A stretch of DNA of 60,978 nucleotides, taken from positions 1-60,978 of the forward strand of contig WJKM01000017.1 of NCBI GenBank assembly GCA_014729085.1. Direction: 5' to 3'. Under the pieces are notes generated by a model. It was not told the origin of the DNA and made no database searches. It saw only the letters and a list, made by a program, of their open reading frames with translations. The position numbers were made by a program, and so were the translations under genes. The stretch is from Candidatus Dojkabacteria bacterium. GTDB lineage: Bacteria; Patescibacteriota; Dojkabacteria; B142; WJKM01. This document shows, piece after piece, positions 1 through 29,906 of this stretch. Positions within the stretch are counted from its first letter, which is position 1; each line of letters opens with the position of its first letter.

Positions 1-450
1 GATTCCTGATCAAGTCAGGAATGACATAAAGAAATAAGGCATGACCTCGCCCCTACTTTGCCATTCATGCGTAACGTTGTCATTCCTGCGAAAGCAGGAA
101 TCTCGGCTCTTTTGCCCTCACTTCGTCCCTATGCTTTATACAAGATTCCTGATCATAGTCAGGAATGACATAAAGAAATAGTATGTTAGATTCCTGATCA
201 AGTCAGGAATGACATAAAGGAATAAGGCAGACCTCTCCTCCACTTTGCCATTCATGCGTAACGTTGTCATTCCTGCGAAAGCAGGAATCTCTTCTCTTTT
301 TCCCTCACTTCGTCTCTATACTTTTTTGCAAGATTTCTGAGCATAATCAGGAACGACATAAAGGAATAGTATGTTAGATTCCTGATCAAGTCAGGAATGA
401 CATAAGGAATAGTATGTTAGATCCCTGATCACGGTCAGGAATGACATAAA
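1..450 (+). repeat. Mosaic palindromic repeat array 1, truncated by the window start. It has ~188-bp composite units of hairpin A (ATTCCTGA-N5/6-TCAGGAAT) and hairpin B (ATTCCTGC-GAAA-GCAGGAAT).
   Basis: A copies start at 1, 144, 189, 332 (degenerate), 377 and 420. B hairpins lie at 82-101 and 269-288. The 1->189->377 and 144->332 spacings give a 188-bp period. No ORF of 60 aa or more. Confidence 0.9.
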
Positions 451-489
451 AACGACCTTAGGCCATTCTTCGGTCAAAAGATATATTTA

Positions 490-518
490 TTGCACAATCC
501 CGCGATTTATGCTATATT
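490..518 (+). promoter_or_regulatory. Candidate sigma70-type promoter TTGCAC-N17-TATATT, distal, about 580 nt upstream of the SLH gene
   Basis: TTGCAC at 490-495, a 17-nt spacer, TATATT at 513-518. AT-rich context, so false positives are likely. Confidence 0.3.
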
Positions 519-771
519 TAAAAGATATAAAAAGATCTACTTTATATCTAAGAATAAATTTAAATTTTTCTTAACACTTTTTTCGACACTTGTTATACTA
601 TATATCGTTATTTCAAATGAAGAACCAATAAATTGGTAAACTAGTAAAATTGTGCACAGGTACAATTTTATGTTTTATTGCTCCTTGAAAACTGAATAAC
701 CGCGAAATAAGTTAAAAGGTTTGAACAAAAAAACAAATAAAATACATTTATTATTATTTTAATTGATTGAA

Positions 772-870
772 GGCAGAAGATTTTTTTCTCCCTGACAGTA
801 AGGGAAAACTGCCGGAATCTGGAGTCAAGATCTTATTTTGACCCCAGATATCGGCAGGAATTATTCTGCC
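772..870 (+). promoter_or_regulatory. Highly structured RNA-like element (three-way junction) upstream of the SLH gene. Candidate cis-regulatory leader or small RNA; class not recognised.
   Basis: P1 pairs GGCAGAA (772-778) with TTCTGCC (864-870). P2 is TCCCT-gacagta-AGGGA (789-805). P3 is a 20-position stem at 809-857 with 2 mismatches and 1 G.U. The segment is GC-richer than the surrounding AT-rich spacer. Confidence 0.45.
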
Positions 871-890
871 AAAAGCTAACAATGTAAGGA

Positions 891-918
891 TTGCATCTAT
901 TTATAACTAAAATATATT
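891..918 (+). promoter_or_regulatory. Candidate sigma70-type promoter TTGCAT-N16-TATATT, proximal, about 180 nt upstream of the SLH gene
   Basis: TTGCAT at 891-896 and TATATT at 913-918. It competes with the 490-518 candidate. Confidence 0.3.
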
Positions 919-1098
919 TATTATTAAATAGAGCAAAGAATTCATGTTAGCTTAAAACAATGAGGTAGTACAATTTATCTCATTGTTAGAGCTTCGCAGA
1001 AGCTTAAAATCTGCAAAACAAGTTTCTGGTTCTGTAATTTACATATAATAAATTTTCAGATGCCAGAAAGTATTTAATATATTAATTTAATCAAGCAA

Positions 1099-3720
1099 AT
1101 GAGAAAATTTGCCAAAAAATTAGCAGCTGGTGCTGCAGTGGTAGGGCTTCTAGCCGGATCACTTTCACCAGTTCTAGCAGCTGGCGATCTTCCCATCTAT
1201 CCCGATACACCTCCAGCAAACGGAGCACGAATTTCCGTTACTGATGCACAAGTAGGAGGTGTGGATGACGCATTTGGAGACCTAGAAACTCTCTTTATGG
1301 ACATGAATCTCCAAGACGGGAAATACGAATATGATCTTGGTGTCCTTCCAGTATATGGAAACGACCAGGATGATGAAAATGGTGAAGATAGTTTCAGCAC
1401 ACTACAGGTAGAGTTGGATGACACAGGAACACTCCCTCTAACTGAATATGCATTCATCGCAAAAGATGGATCAAACACAAACAAGCCTGTATACAACATT
1501 ACATCTGTTGTAAACGCTCCTGCAGATCTAACAGTATGTGAATATACTATTGGAGACGACACAATCGAACCAGGTGAAGGTTTCGGAACTAAAGTAGAAA
1601 ACTTTGTTGACGATGCCAAAGATGATGGAGACTGTACAACAGTAGGTTACTTTGACGGTAATGACATCTACGACCCAATGGTCGACGAAGACACACTTAC
1701 CTCAACAGTAAGTATTACAGGAGTATCAGGGAATGTTCACAAAGGTGACCCTGACTACCTACACTACTATTTGGACGAAGTATTTTTCTTCCAAGTAAGA
1801 GATGGTGACGAATATGCATACCGAGCCGATGTTGAACTTGGTGAGGCTATGCAAGACCACTCAACAGAAGGTGTCCAAGGTCTAAGAGCAGTTGCTCGAG
1901 GATCTCGAGGCAGACTAGAGTGGAGAGCACCTGAAGACCCAAGTGGTATTGTCGGATATCAAATCAATCTAGACAATGGAACAGGTGACCAACTAACTCA
2001 CCAAACAGTAGTTTTCTTCGAAACCAATCCAGGAACAGATTATGATGTAGAAGTTGCTACATTAAATGGAGAAGGTGACGAAGGTGTAGTAGAAGAAGCA
2101 AGCGCTGACTCAGAAATCGAAGATATCGACTCTGAATTATCAGACATTGCAGACTACTACTTCAGAGACTACATAAGATACCTATACAATCTTTCAATCA
2201 TCGACGGTTATCCAGATGGAACATACCGAGGTGAAGAGCCAGTTACAAGAGCTCAACTTGCAAAGTTTGTATATAATGGATTCAAACTTCCATTTGACAT
2301 GAGTGCACCAGAATTTCCTGATATTGATACAGGACACTCACTTTACACATACGTTATGCTTCTTGCCTCTAACGGAGTTGTAAAGGGTTACTCAGATGGA
2401 ACTTTCAGACCAGATGAACCAGTTCTTCGACAACAAGCCGCTCTATATTTCTTAAGAGCTGCAACATACTATGACGAAGACGTACTTGATCTTGTTTCAA
2501 GTTGTGGTTTCCCAGACCTAGGCGGACTTGGATCAGAAGCACAAACTGCTGTCTGTACAATTGCAAGCCATGGTGATGGAGACTTCGCACCAATTATGTC
2601 TGGTTACTCCGATGGAAATTTCTATCCAGAAAGAGACCTAACTAGAGGCCAAATGGCAAAAGGTGCCCTTGGTGCTGCATCAACTATTGAAAGAAAAGAT
2701 CTAACAGCTGACGATGATCCTTCTTTCATCAACATTCTACCCGCAGAAGGTCTAGATGAATGTGTAGATGACGATGGAGCAGAACCAAACGTTGTTGGTG
2801 CTGATTACGTAGCACACGGAGCAGATGAAGCTGATACAGACTCATGTCCAGTTGGAACTCCAGATGGTACAGATGACTATCAATTCGACTTTATCCGACC
2901 ATTCTGGGTAACTGCAGAAGTAGAAGACCTGGAAGAGGATGAAGTAAGTACAGCTGGTGTTCAGCTTGCATGGGATGACATGTCAAACGATGATCCATCT
3001 ATCGATGGATACATGGTATACAGACGTGAAGTTATGGAAGACGAAACAGAAGAAGATGTAGCAAACGCTTCATGGGATGTATTAGAAGGTAACTATGGTT
3101 ACGAGCAGTCTGAAACACAGTTAAGTATCGCTGACGGAACTGCAGCAACTGCCGGTTCAATTGAAGTTACAGTTGACGGTAACGAAGTTGAGACAACTCA
3201 ACTTGCAGTTGGAGCAACTGATGATGATGCTGCAAATGCTATTGCAAATGCAATTAACGACATCGATGGATTCACTGCCACAGCAACTGGTGGTGCACCT
3301 TCTACTGTAGATGTTGTAAGTGATGTACGTGGAGTTGACTTCACAGTACAAATCTCTGCAAATCCAACAGGACTTGTAATTGCACCTCCTACAGTAATTG
3401 TAGATGTTGCTACTTCAGCAACAGGGGTACAACTACTTGAAGGTTTCGTTCCAGTAGAAATGGTCGATTATCTTGATGCTAATGGCTATGGAACAGATGT
3501 TCTCGTTACAGATAACGACGTAGATGCAGAAGACAAATACGAGTATAAAGTTGTAACAGTCAAGTTTATTCCGTTCCCATTCTCAGAAACTGATGATTAC
3601 GCAAGCATGAATGCTATGCTTGATGATGTAGTCGGTGATGAGGAAGATACAGCGGAAAATCTTGTCATGTCCAGCGGAATGACTCAAAAGGTTTCTGTAC
3701 CTTCAGAAGAGGAATTATAA
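1099..3720 (+). CDS. Large acidic secreted SLH-domain surface (S-layer-like) protein with FN3-like domains
   Basis: Signal peptide MRKFAKKLAAGAAVVGLLAGSLSPVLAAG. Three SLH repeats: IIDGYPDGTYRGEEPVTRAQLAKF, VVKGYSDGTFRPDEPVLRQQAA and MSGYSDGNFYPERDLTRGQMAK. FN3-like segment LEWRAPEDPSGIVGYQI. The C-terminal module is shared with the 4449-5888 product. Confidence 0.92.
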   Translation: MRKFAKKLAAGAAVVGLLAGSLSPVLAAGDLPIYPDTPPANGARISVTDAQVGGVDDAFGDLETLFMDMNLQDGKYEYDLGVLPVYGNDQDDENGEDSFSTLQVELDDTGTLPLTEYAFIAKDGSNTNKPVYNITSVVNAPADLTVCEYTIGDDTIEPGEGFGTKVENFVDDAKDDGDCTTVGYFDGNDIYDPMVDEDTLTSTVSITGVSGNVHKGDPDYLHYYLDEVFFFQVRDGDEYAYRADVELGEAMQDHSTEGVQGLRAVARGSRGRLEWRAPEDPSGIVGYQINLDNGTGDQLTHQTVVFFETNPGTDYDVEVATLNGEGDEGVVEEASADSEIEDIDSELSDIADYYFRDYIRYLYNLSIIDGYPDGTYRGEEPVTRAQLAKFVYNGFKLPFDMSAPEFPDIDTGHSLYTYVMLLASNGVVKGYSDGTFRPDEPVLRQQAALYFLRAATYYDEDVLDLVSSCGFPDLGGLGSEAQTAVCTIASHGDGDFAPIMSGYSDGNFYPERDLTRGQMAKGALGAASTIERKDLTADDDPSFINILPAEGLDECVDDDGAEPNVVGADYVAHGADEADTDSCPVGTPDGTDDYQFDFIRPFWVTAEVEDLEEDEVSTAGVQLAWDDMSNDDPSIDGYMVYRREVMEDETEEDVANASWDVLEGNYGYEQSETQLSIADGTAATAGSIEVTVDGNEVETTQLAVGATDDDAANAIANAINDIDGFTATATGGAPSTVDVVSDVRGVDFTVQISANPTGLVIAPPTVIVDVATSATGVQLLEGFVPVEMVDYLDANGYGTDVLVTDNDVDAEDKYEYKVVTVKFIPFPFSETDDYASMNAMLDDVVGDEEDTAENLVMSSGMTQKVSVPSEEEL

Positions 3721-3752
3721 GCTAAGGCTTGATAATACTCTTTGAAACGAAA

Positions 3753-3781
3753 AAGACCCCCATTCCCGGGGGTCTTTTTTT
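3753..3781 (+). terminator. Rho-independent terminator after the SLH gene
   Basis: AAGACCCCC (3753-3761), loop ATTCCC, GGGGGTCTT (3768-3776), followed by a T-run. Confidence 0.85.
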
Positions 3782-3854
3782 ATAGATATATAGAAGGACT
3801 TGTCTCGGTTTATGTCATTTCTCTTCTTTTTTATCATTCTAAAACCAAAAAAGT

Positions 3855-4345
3855 TGTCATTCCTGCGTAACGTTGTCTTTCCTACGAAAGCAGGAATCTC
3901 GGCTCTTTTATTCCCACTTCGTCCCTATACTTTTATATAAGATTCCTGATCAAGTCAGGAATGACATAAAGGAATAGTATGTTAGATTCCTGATCACAGT
4001 CAGGAATGACATAAAGGAATATGGCATGACCTCTCCCTCATTTTGTCATTCCTGCGTAAGGTTGTCATTCCTGCGGAAGCAGGAATCTCTTCTCTTTTTC
4101 CCTCACTTCGTCCCTATACTTTTATATAAGATTCCTGATCACAGTCAGGAATGACATAAGGAATAGTATGTTAGATTCCTGATCAAGTCAGGAATGACAT
4201 AAAGGAATAAGGCATGACCTCTCCTTCACTTTTCCATTCCTGCGTAACGTTGTCATTCCTGCGAAAGCAGGAATCTCTTTTATTTTACTCCCACTTCGTC
4301 CCTATACTTTTATACAAGATCCCTGATCACAGTCAGGATCACATA
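3855..4345 (+). repeat. Mosaic palindromic repeat array 2, same units and orientation as array 1
   Basis: A copies start at 3941, 3985, 4130, 4174 and 4318 (degenerate). B hairpins lie near 3877-3897 (degenerate), at 4067-4086 (GGAA loop) and at 4255-4274 (GAAA loop). The period is 188-189 bp. Confidence 0.92.
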
Positions 4346-4407
4346 AGAGAGAGGTATTAAAAGATAGAAGAACCGCCTTTCCCTGTACCCTACTTCTTTA
4401 TCCCCTT

Positions 4408-4416
4408 TGCTATAAT
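4408..4416 (+). promoter_or_regulatory. Candidate extended -10 promoter element TGcTATAAT for the second SLH gene
   Basis: TGC at 4408-4410 and TATAAT at 4411-4416. There is no good -35. This placement favours the ATG at 4449 over the ORF-track start at 4419. Confidence 0.4.
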
Positions 4417-4448
4417 AAATGTGTATCTATTTATTACTACTAATTATT

Positions 4449-5888
4449 ATGAAGAAAATACTTACTCTTACTGCTTTATTAATATTATTTTTAACATTTT
4501 GCTCTTCACAGGTGTTTGCTGAATACAGAAACAGTGTTTCATTTGAGGATATTGTAAATCACGAGAACCAGCACCATATTACTTATCTTTATAAACTAGG
4601 ACTTATAGACGGCTATTCTGATGGAACTTTTAGGCCGGACAATACAGTTACAAGAGGAGAATTTGCAAAATTTATAAAAAATGTCTTTCAAGTACCTGAT
4701 AATCTTGATGGAGAAACATTTCCTGATGTCCCAGAAGATCATTGTTTTTTCCAGCATATTCATTCCTTAAAAAATGCTGGAATCATACACGGTTTTTCAG
4801 ACGGAGAATATAAACCTGAGCGCCCAATAACCAAAGGAGAGGCTACAAAAATAATATTCAATTCCGCAAAACACAAAGATCCGAATGTAATTTTCGAGTC
4901 CGAAAGCTGTTTATTTTCTGATATTGAAACCAATGAATTTAAAGGTTTTATATGCGGACTTGTAAACTATACCGAAGACGGATTTGAAAAAATCATTGAT
5001 AATTCTAATTCCAAATTTAATCCTGAAGAAAATATTACAAGAGGACTGGTTGCAAGATGGACATTAAATGCCGGTTCGTATATTCCAAAAACGACCGAAT
5101 TTGAATACGATAAATTCATTGAATTCACAGGTTGGACAAATAATTTTATCCGCCCTGTTCCAGTTAACAAATTTAGAGCAATTGCACTTTCAAACGGCAT
5201 TGAACTTAGTTGGGATGATTTTGTGAATAAAAATATTGATGATAGTATCGATGGATACGTATTAATGAAAAAAGACGGATCTGATTTCGAGCCGATTGAC
5301 CATGTTAATGGACTCGGGGCAACTGCACAGGAAGAGGAACTGGAAGTTTATGGAACAATTGAAGCAGGAGATGAGTATAAAGTTTTTGTAAACAATGATA
5401 ATGAATACTCTTATACCGTTCAAGCTGGGGATACATTGGAATCTGTGGCCGATTCTATCTCGAATCTAATTGACCAAGATGATGCAATCTCTACGCTCAT
5501 CAAGAATTCCGATCCAGACGAGATTATTATAACTTCTTCTATTGCAGGAGTTGAATTTGATATCGATGCTTATGCAATAAACGGTGGTGCTTCTAACAAC
5601 CAGGGTTTTAATCAAGAAGAACTTGTAGAAAATGATATGGGCACATCTATTGAATTTGGAGTAGTACTAACAGGAGATATACCAGGTGAAAAGGGACTAT
5701 ATTCAGATTTAACAGTAAGGGATGATCGAATGTATTATTATAAAATCGCTGCTTTTAAATTCATCCCAAAGGAGCTTTCCAGCGGTGATTACAATACTCA
5801 ACTCGAGTTGGAAAATGATCTGCAAAATCAAGACAACATGATAATAGGACCTTGGGAGGAAATAAGCATAGAAACTCCCGAGAATTAA
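4449..5888 (+). CDS. Secreted SLH-domain surface protein, paralog of the 1099-3720 C-terminal module
   Basis: From the internal Met there is a signal peptide MKKILTLTALLILFLTFCSSQVFA. SLH repeats LIDGYSDGTFRPDNTVTRGEFAKF and IIHGFSDGEYKPERPITKGEATK. The C-terminal FIRP...W(D)D...DDSIDGY...YYYKIAAFKFIP parallels FIRP...AWDD...DPSIDGY...YEYKVVTVKFIP in gene 1. The maximal ORF starts at 4419. Confidence 0.9.
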   Translation: MKKILTLTALLILFLTFCSSQVFAEYRNSVSFEDIVNHENQHHITYLYKLGLIDGYSDGTFRPDNTVTRGEFAKFIKNVFQVPDNLDGETFPDVPEDHCFFQHIHSLKNAGIIHGFSDGEYKPERPITKGEATKIIFNSAKHKDPNVIFESESCLFSDIETNEFKGFICGLVNYTEDGFEKIIDNSNSKFNPEENITRGLVARWTLNAGSYIPKTTEFEYDKFIEFTGWTNNFIRPVPVNKFRAIALSNGIELSWDDFVNKNIDDSIDGYVLMKKDGSDFEPIDHVNGLGATAQEEELEVYGTIEAGDEYKVFVNNDNEYSYTVQAGDTLESVADSISNLIDQDDAISTLIKNSDPDEIIITSSIAGVEFDIDAYAINGGASNNQGFNQEELVENDMGTSIEFGVVLTGDIPGEKGLYSDLTVRDDRMYYYKIAAFKFIPKELSSGDYNTQLELENDLQNQDNMIIGPWEEISIETPEN

Positions 5889-5927
5889 AATTCTAAATTC
5901 AGGGGGCTTTAAGTGGATTTATAAGTT

Positions 5928-6385
5928 TTCCTATGCTTTTATACAAGATTCCTGATCACAGTCAGGAATGACTTAAGGGAATAGTATGCTAGATTCCTGA
6001 TCACGGTCAGGAATGACTTAAGGGAATAAGGCATGACCTCTCCCCCACATTGTCATTCCTGCGTAACGTTGTCATTCCTGCGGAAGCAGGAATCTCTTTT
6101 CTTTTACTCCCACTTCGTCCCTATACTTTATACACAAGATTCCTGATCAAGTCAGGAATGACATAAAGGAATATGGCATGACCTCTCCTCCACTTTGTCA
6201 TTCCTGCGAAAGCAGGAATCTCTTTTCTTTTGCCCTTGCTTCGTCCCTATACTTTTATACAAGATTCCTGATCACAGTCAGGAATGACATAAGGGAATAG
6301 TATGCTAGATTCCTGATCACAGTCAGGAATGACATAAGGGAATAGTATGTTAGATTCCTCATCATAGCCAGGAATAACATAAAGA
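5928..6385 (+). repeat. Mosaic palindromic repeat array 3, same units and orientation
   Basis: A copies start at 5947, 5992, 6138, 6263, 6308 and 6353 (degenerate). B hairpins lie at 6074-6093 (GGAA loop) and 6200-6219 (GAAA loop; short B variant lacking the first core copy). Confidence 0.92.
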
Positions 6386-6487
6386 TAGCTGTCTCAATAA
6401 TTATGAATTACAAAAACTATTCTTTTCTAAACAAAATCAGAATTTTTCAATGTTATAATGGATTTTGAAATTTAAAACAAATAATAT

Positions 6488-7363
6488 ATGAATAAGCCCA
6501 TAAGAAAAGGCCTAAAACTAATTCAACAATTAGGAATTGATAATTTGGTCGTGAATATCTCTAAAACTAAGGTCTTTAAAAATTTTATTCTTAAAAATTT
6601 TTGGGACACAACAACACCTCAAACATATTTCAAGCAATATAAGGCATTTGATGAACTTCTCAGTGAATACAAAATTCAAATAAATAACAAAACAATACTG
6701 GAAATTGGTTCGGGAAATTCCATAGGTATGGGTTATTATTTTTATAAAGATGGATATAAACTTTGGGTTGCTTCAGATAATTATCGAAATCCCCAAAAAA
6801 ACAAGAAACTGTCTAAAAAAGAAATGGAAATCGCACAGGATGCAGTATCACGATTTGGAAATGAACTTTTGAAGGATATATCAATCGAGAATGATACTAT
6901 TCAATATAATGGTAAATTAGACTTTATAAACTTAGATATTGGGAAACAAGAACAGAAATTAATGAACAAATTTGATCTAATCTTTTCTAATGCCGTCTTG
7001 GAACACATTGAACGTAAGTCAATGCTGGATTCGTTTAAAAATATGGCTTTATACTTAAAAAATGGAGGTTATATGATTCATAGGGTTGATCTTCGGGATC
7101 ATATCAATGTTGCTAATCCTTTCAATTTCTACAAATATTCAACACCAGAATGGGAAAAAACTACAAAGGGATCTATTTTTTACACAAATAGACTAAGAGT
7201 TTCAGATTACCTAAAAATAATCAAAAAAAACAAATTAATACTAATAGATATGGTAACAAAGGAAACAGGACTTCCAAAAAAAATACATCCATCTTTAACA
7301 GATAAATACGATAAAAATGACTTATCAAAATACTCCCTTACCTTGATAATCAAAAAAGCATGA
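6488..7363 (+). CDS. Class I SAM-dependent methyltransferase
   Basis: Motif I-like ILEIGSGNSIGMG and post-I/II acidic residues. The stop TGA overlaps the next start (ATGA). Confidence 0.75.
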   Translation: MNKPIRKGLKLIQQLGIDNLVVNISKTKVFKNFILKNFWDTTTPQTYFKQYKAFDELLSEYKIQINNKTILEIGSGNSIGMGYYFYKDGYKLWVASDNYRNPQKNKKLSKKEMEIAQDAVSRFGNELLKDISIENDTIQYNGKLDFINLDIGKQEQKLMNKFDLIFSNAVLEHIERKSMLDSFKNMALYLKNGGYMIHRVDLRDHINVANPFNFYKYSTPEWEKTTKGSIFYTNRLRVSDYLKIIKKNKLILIDMVTKETGLPKKIHPSLTDKYDKNDLSKYSLTLIIKKA

Positions 7364-10270: not shown

Positions 10271-12088
10271 TTAAACGTTATCTTCAAAATATTTTCTGGA
10301 CAAATCAATCATCTTAGCCATTTCCGCTCTAGTTGCATCATTTGAGGGCTTAAAGTTTCCATCTGAATATCCTTTAATAATCCTTTCACCTTCATATTCA
10401 CTATTGGTTAAGAAAGCAATATACTGATAAAAAACACTGGTATCATCAACATCTGGAAAAGCTTCATGATACTGTGCCCAGTTAATTACCATTCCTCTTT
10501 TCTGCATAGTTAATGATATAAATTTTGTTATTTGGTCTCTCTTTACAGCAGCTTCGGCTCTATAAGTACCATCCGAATATCCTGAAACTATACCCATATT
10601 ACAAAGTATTAATATATTTTCGCGGTGAACATGATCAACAGGCAGATCAGCAAAACAATATTTTTCGATAGTGGTATTTAGATCAAATGCTCGAACAATG
10701 AAGCTTGCCATCTCTCCTCTAGAAACTGGATAATCCGGTCTGTATGTTCCGTCACTGTAACCTTTAACAATTCCGTCATTATATAAATTAATAATATATT
10801 CCCGTAAAGGATTGTACTCAATATCAGGGAAAACATCTTCATACCCCTCCCCTGCTCCCGCAAAAACGTCCTTTTGGTCTGTAACTGGTCCTTCACTATC
10901 AAGATAACTAACAACAACTGTATCTCCCTCCTGTACATAAAGATATCCATTATTATCAGCATTATGAGCCTGGTCATCTGTTGTTCTAAAAGCACCTTCA
11001 AATATTGCACTTCCATCTTCTGTCTCGATTAGGGAAAATGTTTCAATCTCACCTGTTGTCATATTTAAAGCCTCTCCTTCTACTTCATCCTCAATACCTC
11101 CATGAGTATTTGCATCATTATCGGTTAATTTAACATCTATTAAATCGACCTCATAAATAGCTGAATCTGTTATATCTATACTTGCTGTTGTTGTGTTTGT
11201 TTTAATATCAATATCTACAGTTTGAGGATCACTTTCCAAATCCCCATCATTTACTGTAATGCTAACATGTCTGTCTTCGATATCTGGAGCTGTACGTGTA
11301 TTATTATATGTCAATGTTCTAAGGACTTTCTGGTAATTTGCTATTGCATCAAGTTCAGAAAGAGTAAGCGTAAAAGTATTTGCATCATATTCCATTTCAA
11401 TATCAGTTCCTGTTACATCAATACTAATATATTCATCCAGTAAATCGGGATGATTATCAAGTGTTATTGTTGCACCTTCTAATTCTGTGTCATCTGAATC
11501 AGCAACTGTTAAATCGGGATCAATAATTACAGGAAAACTTCCTTGATAAAAATGCGTTTGTTCATCTCCATTTAGTTTAATTTCTGGTGCATCATTAACA
11601 GAAATGATATTAATATCTGTATCATCTGCATCGCTGTTCGAATCGTCATATACCGTAATCTCTATGGTCCGGTTGCGATCATCAGGTTCATCCTCCTTAT
11701 TATCGTAAGTTAAGGTTTCAATGACCTGCTGAAAATTTGCCGGCGTATCAGGTCCTGTTAAATATAGAATGCCTTCTTGATCATCAAAATCTTTAGTTAT
11801 ACTTGTTCCAGTTATTGTGGCATCTAATACTTCATCCTTTCCATCCATTCTATAATGAAGTTCGATTGTAGCAGAATTCAATGAGCCGTCCGTATCGGTA
11901 ATTGTAACTCCCGATGCTACTAGTACGGGTCCTCCATCTTCGGTGAAATTTGGTGTTATACCCGGAAGTGTTATTGTCGGAGCTGCCGCTGAAACCTTTG
12001 GTATTAATGGAGATACAATCAAAGCTATCATTGTGAAAATAAGAAGTTTTGAAAGATGTTTATGAATATTAGTAACCATTTTATGCAA
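10271..12088 (-). CDS. Secreted surface protein with cadherin-like repeats and three C-terminal SLH repeats
   Basis: Signal peptide. Repeated modules end in SVNDAPEI and contain LTYDN/LTYNN-type motifs. SLH repeats IVKGYSDGTYRPDYPVSRGEMASF, IVSGYSDGTYRAEAAVKRDQITKF and IIKGYSDGNFKPSNDATRAEMAKM. Confidence 0.9.
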   Translation of the reverse strand: MHKMVTNIHKHLSKLLIFTMIALIVSPLIPKVSAAAPTITLPGITPNFTEDGGPVLVASGVTITDTDGSLNSATIELHYRMDGKDEVLDATITGTSITKDFDDQEGILYLTGPDTPANFQQVIETLTYDNKEDEPDDRNRTIEITVYDDSNSDADDTDINIISVNDAPEIKLNGDEQTHFYQGSFPVIIDPDLTVADSDDTELEGATITLDNHPDLLDEYISIDVTGTDIEMEYDANTFTLTLSELDAIANYQKVLRTLTYNNTRTAPDIEDRHVSITVNDGDLESDPQTVDIDIKTNTTTASIDITDSAIYEVDLIDVKLTDNDANTHGGIEDEVEGEALNMTTGEIETFSLIETEDGSAIFEGAFRTTDDQAHNADNNGYLYVQEGDTVVVSYLDSEGPVTDQKDVFAGAGEGYEDVFPDIEYNPLREYIINLYNDGIVKGYSDGTYRPDYPVSRGEMASFIVRAFDLNTTIEKYCFADLPVDHVHRENILILCNMGIVSGYSDGTYRAEAAVKRDQITKFISLTMQKRGMVINWAQYHEAFPDVDDTSVFYQYIAFLTNSEYEGERIIKGYSDGNFKPSNDATRAEMAKMIDLSRKYFEDNV

Positions 12089-29300: not shown

Positions 29301-29906
29301 TTATTCCTTTTCTTCTTTTTCTTCTTCTGACTTATCCTCTTTCTTATCTTCCGTCTCATCCTCTTTTTTTTCTTGAGTATCCCCTTCCTTTTTTTCGGTT
29401 TCTTTAGTTCCTTTGTTCTCTTTCTTTGTATCTTCTTTCTTTTCACTATCTTCACCTTCAGGTTGTTCTTGTTGAGAATCTTCTTTTTCTTGCTTTTCAG
29501 TGTCTGGATCGCTCTGTTCTTCTTCATAATATATAATATCCTCTACTTCTTTTCCGCTTTCCCCCACTTTCATAGCCTTTTTACCAATTCTTCCACGCAT
29601 ATAATATATTTTTGATTTTTTAACTTTTCCTTTCTTTAAAATTTCCACTTTTTCAACATTTGGAGAATGTACAGGAAATATTTTTTCCACTCCAACTCCT
29701 TGTGAGATTTTTCGTACAGTTATTGTCTTTCTTACACCTGAACCTTTTTGAGAAATAATCAAACCTCGGTACGACTGACTTCTTCGTTTTTCCCCCTTGT
29801 CATCCCTAATTGCTGATGTAACTTTAACAGTATCTCCTACTTCGAAATTTGGGAGACTCTTTTTCATGTACTCTTTTTCTACTTTTTCATAAATATTTGT
29901 ATCCAT
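29301..29906 (-). CDS. rplS: 50S ribosomal protein L19 with a long acidic/lysine-rich C-terminal extension
   Basis: The L19 core is LPNFEVGDTVKV...RRSQSYRGLIISQKGSG...TVRKIS.GVGVEKIFPVHSP...YYMRGR. The start is taken at the Met of MDTNIYEK; the maximal ORF starts at 29963. Confidence 0.9.
   Translation of the reverse strand: MDTNIYEKVEKEYMKKSLPNFEVGDTVKVTSAIRDDKGEKRRSQSYRGLIISQKGSGVRKTITVRKISQGVGVEKIFPVHSPNVEKVEILKKGKVKKSKIYYMRGRIGKKAMKVGESGKEVEDIIYYEEEQSDPDTEKQEKEDSQQEQPEGEDSEKKEDTKKENKGTKETEKKEGDTQEKKEDETEDKKEDKSEEEKEEKE

Follow-up and report, generated by a model that had tools for sequence, protein, structure and literature searches.

The described systems closest to the repeats analyzed here are the hairpins of Neisseria and their relatives. 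The NTS element, CGTCATTCCCGCGMAVGCGGGAATCYRG, holds the dRS3 palindrome ATTCCC-N8-GGGAAT and has been generalized as the Ssn-related motif (SRM) (Chenal et al. 2025, PMC11893778). The published partner of this hairpin family is Ssn, and not RAYT, the Y1 tyrosine transposase. The gene most consistently flanked by SRMs, ssnA, encodes a 94-aa single-domain GIY-YIG protein (cd10448). Ssn binds the hairpin as single-stranded DNA (ssDNA) only, on one strand only and not as RNA, and its cut falls a few nucleotides 5′ of the tag; cleavage needs the three bases 5′ of the palindrome (GTC), binding needs the C just 3′ of it, and in N. meningitidis SsnA reduces transformation with DNA that bears NTS (Chenal et al. 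2025, PMC11893778). Here we compare with these systems a set of tagged hairpins arrayed around the genes of two SLH surface proteins in the window; the window is the whole of one contig (WJKM01000017.1, Candidatus Dojkabacteria bacterium; 60,978 bp, or 61 kb). All hairpin counts for the window cover that contig only.

Neisseria dRS3 also belongs, with Rickettsia RPE-6, to family CGTC-1 of the CGTC superfamily of REPs, in which the tag is often TGTC (also CCTC), the 8–9-bp stems start with AT, the loop is of 4 nt (family 1) or 5 nt (families 2–4), the tail is short, and the repeats are extragenic and of high copy number (Di Nocera et al. 2013, PMC3733652). Mixed dimers of loop types occur, a dedicated transposase was noted to be absent, and no RAYT/IS200 gene flanked by CGTC repeats was found; the repeats were found in five phyla, with none in the candidate phyla radiation (CPR), and grouped elements are rare outside Neisseria and Wolbachia (Di Nocera et al. 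2013, PMC3733652). In NIME, dRS3 (ATTCCCNNNNNNNNGGGAAT) flanks RS elements of ~50–150 bp in intergenic arrays, which were described as Neisseria-specific and proposed to influence recombination of their neighbors (Bentley et al. 2007, PMC1797815). Neisseria NTS clusters adjoin membrane-protein genes (PMC11893778).

The window hairpins occur in two forms, A and B. Form B (TGTCATTCCTGCGAAAGCAGGAATC) is identical to the Neisseria NTS/dRS3 hairpin (CGTCATTCCCGCGMAVGCGGGAATC) at 23 of the 28 positions of the NTS consensus; of the five differences, two make up a single compensatory C:G→T:A stem pair. All 7/7 B copies have the GTC tag and the C 3′ of the palindrome; in form A the C is present in 17/17 copies (as the G before ATTCC on the + strand) and GTC in all but two degenerate terminal copies. 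The TGTC tag, the 8-bp stem starting with AT, and the loop of 4 nt (B) or 5 nt (A) are those of the CGTC superfamily, and the tails have only their first C in common with its tail consensus CCA. Judged by sequence, the hairpins very probably belong to the dRS3/NTS/SRM, CGTC/TGTC-tagged REP family, in which B would fit as CGTC-1-like and A as CGTC-2-like, except for the many A copies with a 6-nt loop. An earlier note on this DNA had called the repeat unrelated to any known REP and had named a match to a described REP family as the finding that would overturn its reading. The first claim is not supported, as the hairpin is a close variant of Neisseria dRS3/NTS inside the CGTC/TGTC-tagged superfamily, and the match exists in the families of Di Nocera 2013 and Chenal 2025.

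On balance, we think it probable that the arrays are NIME-like clusters of Ssn-type ssDNA hairpin sites that bracket two paralogous SLH surface-protein genes. The layout is array–SLH1–array–SLH2–array, as follows.

1 to 450: array 1, in the order A, linker2, B′-B, linker1, A, A, linker2, B′-B, linker1, A, A, A
1099 to 3720, + strand: SLH1, secreted, 873 aa, three SLH domains and fn3, between arrays 1 and 2
3750 to 3781, + strand: SLH1 intrinsic terminator, GACCCCC-ATTCCC-GGGGGTC then a T run, read from the sequence; precedes array 2
3854 to 4347: array 2, the 188-bp unit × 2.6, with the SLH1 terminator before it and the SLH2 promoter region after it
4449 to 5888, + strand: SLH2, signal peptide and SLH domains, between arrays 2 and 3
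About 5930 to 6385: array 3, starting ~40 bp past the SLH2 stop codon, with a 126-bp single-A unit and three A at its end

Tandem Repeats Finder resolved a period of 188 bp at 1–411 (2.2 copies, 91% matches) and at 3854–4347 (2.6 copies, 90% matches), a 126-bp variant repeat at 6069–6299, and 43–45-bp sub-repeats of the A module at 331–450 and 6262–6382. Regular expressions for the hairpins (A, ATTCCTGA-TCAAG or TCAYRG-TCAGGAAT plus GACA; B, TGTC plus ATTCCTGC-GRAA-GCAGGAAT) returned 17 A and 7 B copies over the three arrays, with a strict strand polarity: 7/7 B lie on the + strand and 17/17 A on the − strand. All 24 hairpins are intergenic, inside 6.4 kb around the two SLH genes. Scans with the 11-mer TGTCATTCCTG and with tagged palindromes revealed no further hairpin copy in the other 54.6 kb of the contig. 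With at most one mismatch, the 11-mer occurs 26 times against 0.87 expected, 0/100 shuffles reach 26, and 25/26 matches fall inside 1–6379; perfect palindromes tagged with [CT]GTC number 16 in the arrays, with one chance match in the remaining 54.6 kb. The hairpins and half-sites are listed below.

78 to 102, + strand: B hairpin, TGTC-ATTCCTGC-GAAA-GCAGGAAT-C
265 to 289, + strand: B hairpin
3874 to 3898, + strand: B hairpin, 5′ arm degenerate (TTTCCTAC), first in array 2
4063 to 4087, + strand: B hairpin, loop GGAA
4251 to 4275, + strand: B hairpin
6070 to 6094, + strand: B hairpin, loop GGAA
6196 to 6220, + strand: B hairpin, the sole B without an upstream half-site
59 to 77, + strand: B′ half-site, degenerate; direct copy of the tag, 5′ arm, and loop start
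246 to 264, + strand: B′ half-site, degenerate
3855 to 3873, + strand: B′ half-site, TGTCATTCCTGCGTAACGT
4044 to 4062, + strand: B′ half-site
4232 to 4250, + strand: B′ half-site, degenerate
6051 to 6069, + strand: B′ half-site
1 to 26, − strand: A hairpin
144 to 170, − strand: A hairpin, loop 6 nt
189 to 214, − strand: A hairpin, loop 5 nt
332 to 358, − strand: A hairpin, degenerate
377 to 402, − strand: A hairpin, loop 5 nt
420 to 446, − strand: A hairpin, one mismatch in the stem, last in array 1
3941 to 3966, − strand: A hairpin, loop 5 nt
3985 to 4011, − strand: A hairpin, loop 6 nt
4130 to 4156, − strand: A hairpin, loop 6 nt
4174 to 4199, − strand: A hairpin, loop 5 nt
4318 to 4344, − strand: A hairpin, degenerate, last in array 2
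5947 to 5973, − strand: A hairpin, tag AGTC
5992 to 6018, − strand: A hairpin, tag AGTC
6138 to 6163, − strand: A hairpin, loop 5 nt
6263 to 6289, − strand: A hairpin, loop 6 nt
6308 to 6334, − strand: A hairpin, loop 6 nt
6353 to 6379, − strand: A hairpin, degenerate, last in array 3

These results bear out three observations of the earlier note: a 188-bp composite unit made from one core used in both orientations (by Tandem Repeats Finder, regular expressions, and an alignment of the units), 17 A and 7 B hairpins in three arrays, and a mosaic layout like that of BIME/REP clusters, with alternating orientation and conserved linkers. Its copy counts are those that the regular expressions returned. 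The conserved module is longer than 11 nt and consists of the tag TGTC, an 8-bp stem (ATTCCTGN/NCAGGAAT) closed over a loop of 4–6 nt, and a 3′ C. The order of the unit is B′ (the 19-nt half-site), B, linker1 (44 bp), A, A, linker2; a single-A unit occurs in array 3, and arrays 1 and 3 have triple-A ends. The start of the contig falls inside array 1, a truncation that looks like an assembly break at the repeat.

Read on the − strand, A is TGTC-ATTCCTGA-CTTGA-TCAGGAAT-C. Because the reverse complement of A is itself a TGTC-tagged hairpin, A and B are one hairpin (common form TGTC-ATTCCTG…CAGGAAT-C) and differ in the closing pair and the loop, which is of 4 nt in B (GAAA/GGAA) and of 5 nt (TCAAG) or 6 nt in A, the longer loop being found in 11 A copies. 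TGTC abuts the stem in 7/7 B, one of which has the degenerate 5′ arm. Among the A copies the tag is TGTC in 10 perfect copies plus others and AGTC in two, and two terminal copies are degenerate. The tails after the palindrome read CTC, CTT, or CTA, and the spacers between hairpins measure 18–44 bp. As ssDNA, B is predicted to fold with −7.8 kcal/mol (z −5.9) and A with −6.5 and −6.2 kcal/mol (z −3.6 and −3.3). The 19-nt direct copy of the tag and 5′ arm (TGTCATTCCTGCGTAACGT) stands upstream of 6/7 B hairpins; slippage or a cleavage/repair footprint are possible origins of this half-site.

The B-linker1-A modules are as alike between arrays (similarity 0.884) as within them (0.886). Their stems are near-invariant, and the differences among modules sit in the linker and the loop. 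SLH1 and SLH2 are distant paralogues, with 26% identity over ~490 aa (E 1e-40). The arrays are therefore far younger than the SLH duplication, or else are homogenized by gene conversion. B followed by A, with the tags outward and the tails inward, is the arrangement that an ssn cassette (a tagged hairpin, then the gene, then the hairpin inverted) would have without its gene. This likeness hints at a MITE-like origin of the unit, without proving it.

A rival explanation is a selfish or relic MITE-like unit, inherited or acquired, that is partner-less here, has been amplified by unequal crossing-over alone, and is functionless. The contig contains no partner gene, each array ends in degenerate copies, and the linkers are private to the lineage, all as this explanation would have it; moreover, Chenal et al. 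(2025, PMC11893778) report that no Ssn homologue is detectable in 19% of the genomes with >200 SRMs. We nevertheless regard a functionless relic as unlikely. Near-invariant stems lie beside variable linkers, the strand polarity is strict, and the similarity between arrays far exceeds that of the SLH paralogues, which argues for ongoing homogenization or recent spread and not for passive decay.

The hairpin is widespread. In a scan of public genomes with one genome per species (185,579 species), the exact pattern TGTCATTCCTG-N6–8-CAGGAATC was found at no fewer than 120 loci, against ~13 expected by chance according to our own estimate. The matches include Flavobacteriaceae, Nitrospirota, Rickettsia, Coxiellaceae, Ignavibacteria, Omnitrophota, Planctomycetota, Chloroflexota, Desulfobacterota, and other groups, and six CPR lineages (Peregrinibacteria, Berkelbacteria, Kuenenbacteria, Gracilibacteria, Paceibacteria, and Saccharibacteria). 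Between genomes only the ~25-nt hairpin is kept, and the flanks are unrelated. When the 188-bp unit was compared with 240 loci by blastn, only hairpins matched; the linkers are private to this lineage. Blastn against PLSDB gave no plasmid match. Loops elsewhere are mostly GAAA, GAAG, GGAA, GCAG, and GCAA, and a second class, of the CTTGA type, is the A form of the window. The A form itself (pattern GATTCCTGATCA-N1–2-GTCAGGAATGAC) was found on at least 120 metagenome contigs, often with an inverted B-type hairpin 5–60 bp away. In 386 related hairpins from 1.5 Mb of retrieved loci, the variable stem pair was T:A in 314, C:G in 63, G:C in 6, A:T in 1, and non-Watson-Crick in 2, the T:A count being inflated since the T:A variant was the query. 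Sequence, and not just structure, is conserved across phyla, which points to recognition by a protein.

Tandem arrays that carry the hairpin also occur elsewhere, with periods of 301 bp × 4.7 beside an ssn-like gene in a member of the Flavobacteriaceae (L028:6469–7878; L numbers denote retrieved loci), 186 bp × 2.3 in Omnitrophus (L046:1–431), and 185 bp × 2.9 in Winogradskyella (L109:4555–5101). The periods of 188, 186, and 185 bp are nearly equal in three arrays with unrelated linkers, which may be a coincidence. The half-site GTCATTCC was seen ≤35 nt upstream of 11/379 hairpins, compared with 6/379 downstream, in unrelated genomes that include those of loci L071, L072, L086, and L102.

Searches with phmmer identified small GIY-YIG open reading frames (ORFs) in 11 of the 240 hairpin loci, and hairpins directly adjoin Ssn-like genes in L059, L065, L028, L238, L126, and L274. 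The Ssn-like neighbors tested have the Pfam GIY-YIG domain alone and are of 94–112 aa. On L274, a 133-kb metagenome contig, the Ssn-like gene is immediately preceded by the exact A hairpin of the window and a B-type hairpin and immediately followed by an A-type hairpin; in L270, which comes from a CPR2 bacterium, the hairpin-gene-hairpin architecture is the same, with a CCC/GGG stem. Unbiased clustering of the ORFs ≤200 bp from hairpins yielded the GIY-YIG family as the only recurrent non-housekeeping neighbor, and GIY-YIG ranked first in the small size class of a Pfam census of 174 ORFs ≤120 bp from hairpins, for which the 25 commonest families per set were listed. Three side observations concern the same loci. 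At L274:6776–11615, hairpin clusters and the ssn-like gene lie inside a polysaccharide/glycosyltransferase cluster. GT2, ABC-2, and LysM genes are common hairpin neighbors in the Pfam census, and a general link to envelope loci is possible. Fragmentary or frameshifted ssn-like ORFs at L184:4809–5149 and L207:5753–5914, loci with an A hairpin, may be decaying cassettes.

The earlier note had expected as partner either a dedicated DNA-binding protein or a RAYT. The former was right in spirit, Ssn being a hairpin-specific ssDNA nuclease; the latter found no support, as the tag is TGTC and not GTAG and the recurrent neighbor is a GIY-YIG protein. That these are classical REP/BIME elements mobilized by RAYT is in our judgment very improbable. 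The BIME-like layout of alternating hairpins and conserved linkers agrees with it, and the tetranucleotide beside the stem is formally analogous to GTAG. Against it stand the TGTC tag of the CGTC superfamily, the published lack of any CGTC-flanked RAYT/IS200 gene cited above, and the gene neighborhoods. Transposase, recombinase, integrase, prophage, Y1, and GIY-YIG domains were absent from every scanned ORF of the contig, and the neighbor clustering yielded no transposase. Neither a Y1 (Y1_Tnp) nor an IS110 transposase is among the 25 commonest listed Pfam families near hairpins; singleton families beyond those are not visible in the census and no dedicated Y1 profile search of all loci was made, so that a single RAYT could escape.

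The same neighborhoods bear on the idea that the hairpins are double-stranded or cruciform targets of a Piv/IS110-type recombinase or a phage integrase that drives the exchange of SLH cassettes. In its favor, dRS3 is the integration site of neisserial filamentous (Nf) prophages via a phage-encoded transposase/recombinase, NIME arrays have been proposed as recombinase substrates, and the hairpin occurs in its exact form on 28 predicted viral stretches of IMG/VR (L241–L268), several of them multi-copy. No ssn-like gene was present in the retrieved DNA of these 28 stretches. A role of this kind is hardly likely, however, given that the contig contains no recombinase, integrase, or prophage gene and that none recurs beside hairpins, either in the clustering or in the listed Pfam families.

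Several observations weigh against reading the arrays as Ssn-type sites. The published SRM pattern, HGTCWYN(0-2)YYVSBRHN(0-5)WNVSBRGN(0-2)RNCYNB, has 0 matches on either strand of the contig. The mismatch lies in the two bases that form the compensatory T:A pair; once those positions are relaxed, 4/7 B hairpins match, versus 0.12 in shuffles. No Ssn-like gene was detected in the 61-kb contig (best phmmer E 1.6). In N. meningitidis, an altered palindrome sequence with the structure kept abolished SsnA activity (Chenal et al. 2025, PMC11893778), so that a cognate, co-evolved Ssn would be needed for the window hairpins. The A hairpins with a 6-nt loop and the linkers of the window have no described counterpart. 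Finally, T-rich tracts lie 3′ of B hairpins on the coding strand, which makes a role at the RNA level possible.

Five B hairpins score as terminator-like on the + strand, that of the SLH genes, with an 8-bp stem, a GNRA-type loop, and then CTCTTYTCTTTT. The hairpins could accordingly be terminators, attenuators, or 3′-end mRNA stabilizers for highly expressed SLH genes, with the arrays as stacked terminators. A terminator scan returned 10 sites versus 3.5 expected, array 3 begins 40 bp past the SLH2 stop codon with no other terminator there, and, as Di Nocera et al. (2013, PMC3733652) note, the position of many REPs is downstream of a gene, where their transcription is plausible. Conversely, a canonical SLH1 terminator already precedes array 2, the A hairpins have no T tract, and SsnA does not bind the RNA form. 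Other genomes have kept the tag, the stem sequence, and the 3′ C, but not the T-rich tail. We therefore rate an RNA-level function as the main explanation as unlikely, although RNA-level and Ssn-type roles do not exclude each other.

The Ssn-type explanation, which we favor, entails the following mechanism. The window hairpins would act as folded ssDNA, bound and cut on one strand by an Ssn whose gene would lie in another part of the genome. Unequal recombination or slippage probably amplified the 188-bp unit, which would either have spread among the three intergenic sites or have been homogenized there. As in Neisseria NIME/NTS, the arrays would modulate ssDNA recombination covering the SLH genes. 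The presence of an Ssn in this genome, cleavage of the window sites, and any effect on recombination or SLH variation are points that we infer from the comparisons above. Tentatively, and with considerable doubt, the idea can be extended: Ssn-type arrays around surface-protein genes may be a general cross-phylum device, and no peculiarity of Neisseria, that controls the recombination of ssDNA or transformation at cell-surface loci and thereby their variation, in the present case in an ultra-small CPR bacterium. B-linker-A would be a hairpin-ssn-hairpin cassette emptied of its gene, and Ssn cassettes would then be, or once have been, mobile elements that give rise to MITE-like derivatives.

The remainder of the contig (GC ~31%) has a chromosomal, envelope-rich gene content that includes glycosyltransferases, Wzt/Wzm, PMT-like proteins, Lgt, RNase HII, L19, RecX, an ECF-type sigma factor, and five tRNAs. 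Among 5.8 billion proteins, none is more than 54% identical to the formyltransferase of the contig, and the named matches are nearly all from Candidatus Dojkabacteria. Homologues of SLH1 have only the SLH domain in common with it (≤46% identity over 20% of the query), and there is therefore no orthologous locus for comparison. GC rises to 40–42.5% in SLH1 (window 1001–4000) and ~36% in SLH2, compared with ~31% in the rest of the contig; the rise could reflect a foreign origin or else codon bias in a highly expressed gene for a surface protein. An AT-rich stretch of ~650 bp (451–1098) separates array 1 from the SLH1 start codon, and its best promoter-like site (571–599; TTAACA-17-TATACT with TG) would give SLH1 a leader of ~500 nt. 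A third SLH-domain protein, encoded at 10271–12088 on the − strand, 4 kb downstream, has no adjoining hairpin arrays. Ribosomal protein L19 (29301–29963, − strand) is extended at its C terminus by ~90 aa with many Glu, Lys, and Asp residues, and a 24-bp tandem repeat (29307–29374) encodes part of this extension.

What was an unknown REP-like mosaic can now be assigned to a family with a biochemically characterized partner, Ssn, and hence with a concrete and testable mechanism. The kind of repeat and the partner family are already known. The residual interest lies in the CPR host, the T:A variant outside the SRM pattern, the half-site that recurs upstream, and the convergent positioning of arrays around genes for surface proteins. 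The hairpin family is extended to a Dojkabacteria-like CPR genome, and NIME-like bracketing of surface-protein genes, which had been called Neisseria-specific, recurs in a very distant lineage. Because the SRM pattern misses the T:A variant, present at these loci in many phyla, SRM counts in AT-rich genomes are probably underestimated. The T:A variants also point to further enzyme/site pairs for Ssn biotechnology.

Other classes of repeats were considered and set aside. A CRISPR array was rejected because the "spacers" are themselves repeats, the linkers recurring at ~88% identity. On inspection of the sequence we saw neither an integron attC core nor the target-site duplications of a MITE. 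Rfam returned no match to the arrays at gathering score, and the matches in 1–6500 were sub-threshold and at chance level (E ≥0.065, up to 1). Among these, the B regions 4214–4312 and 6165–6257 weakly matched the small RNA families FtrB (Francisella) and BjrC68 (Bradyrhizobiaceae), which hints that these Rfam families may contain CGTC-type REP hairpins.

Among the known systems, NTS/SRM with SsnA has in common with the window the succession of tag, stem, loop, stem, and C, the 4-nt loop (GAAA/GGAA), the directionality, and the intergenic clustering around surface-protein genes. Compared with NTS, the window has a T:A stem pair (C:G in NTS), T as the first tag base, and the tail CTC/CTT (CYRG in NTS); compared with NTS/SRM in general, its host is a CPR bacterium, there is no ssn on the contig, and a second form, A, has a 5–6-nt loop. 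The CGTC-1 and CGTC-2 families resemble the window in their CGTC/TGTC tag, AT-start 8-bp stem, loops of 4 and 5 nt, mixed dimers, and intergenic position, and the tails of the window, likewise short and unpaired, agree in their first C; in the window, however, every copy stands in a tandem array and many A loops are of 6 nt.

With NIME, the window shares arrays of the 20-bp palindrome with short repeated spacers that bracket genes for surface-exposed proteins and appear dynamic or homogenized. Its palindrome, however, is ATTCCT-N8-AGGAAT (B) or ATTCCT-N9/10-AGGAAT (A) and not ATTCCC-N8-GGGAAT, its spacers are of 18–44 bp, and two linker families form a strict 188-bp unit, where NIME has >100 RS families. 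The window arrays are thus NIME-like in architecture and are not NIMEs in the strict sense. Enterobacterial REP/BIME elements with RAYT likewise have tagged hairpins of alternating orientation with conserved linkers. Their tag is GTAG and their enzyme a Y1 HUH transposase, in contrast to TGTC and GIY-YIG here, and the sequences are unrelated; yet they are like the Ssn systems in that an ssDNA hairpin is recognized by a small nuclease whose gene the repeats flank.

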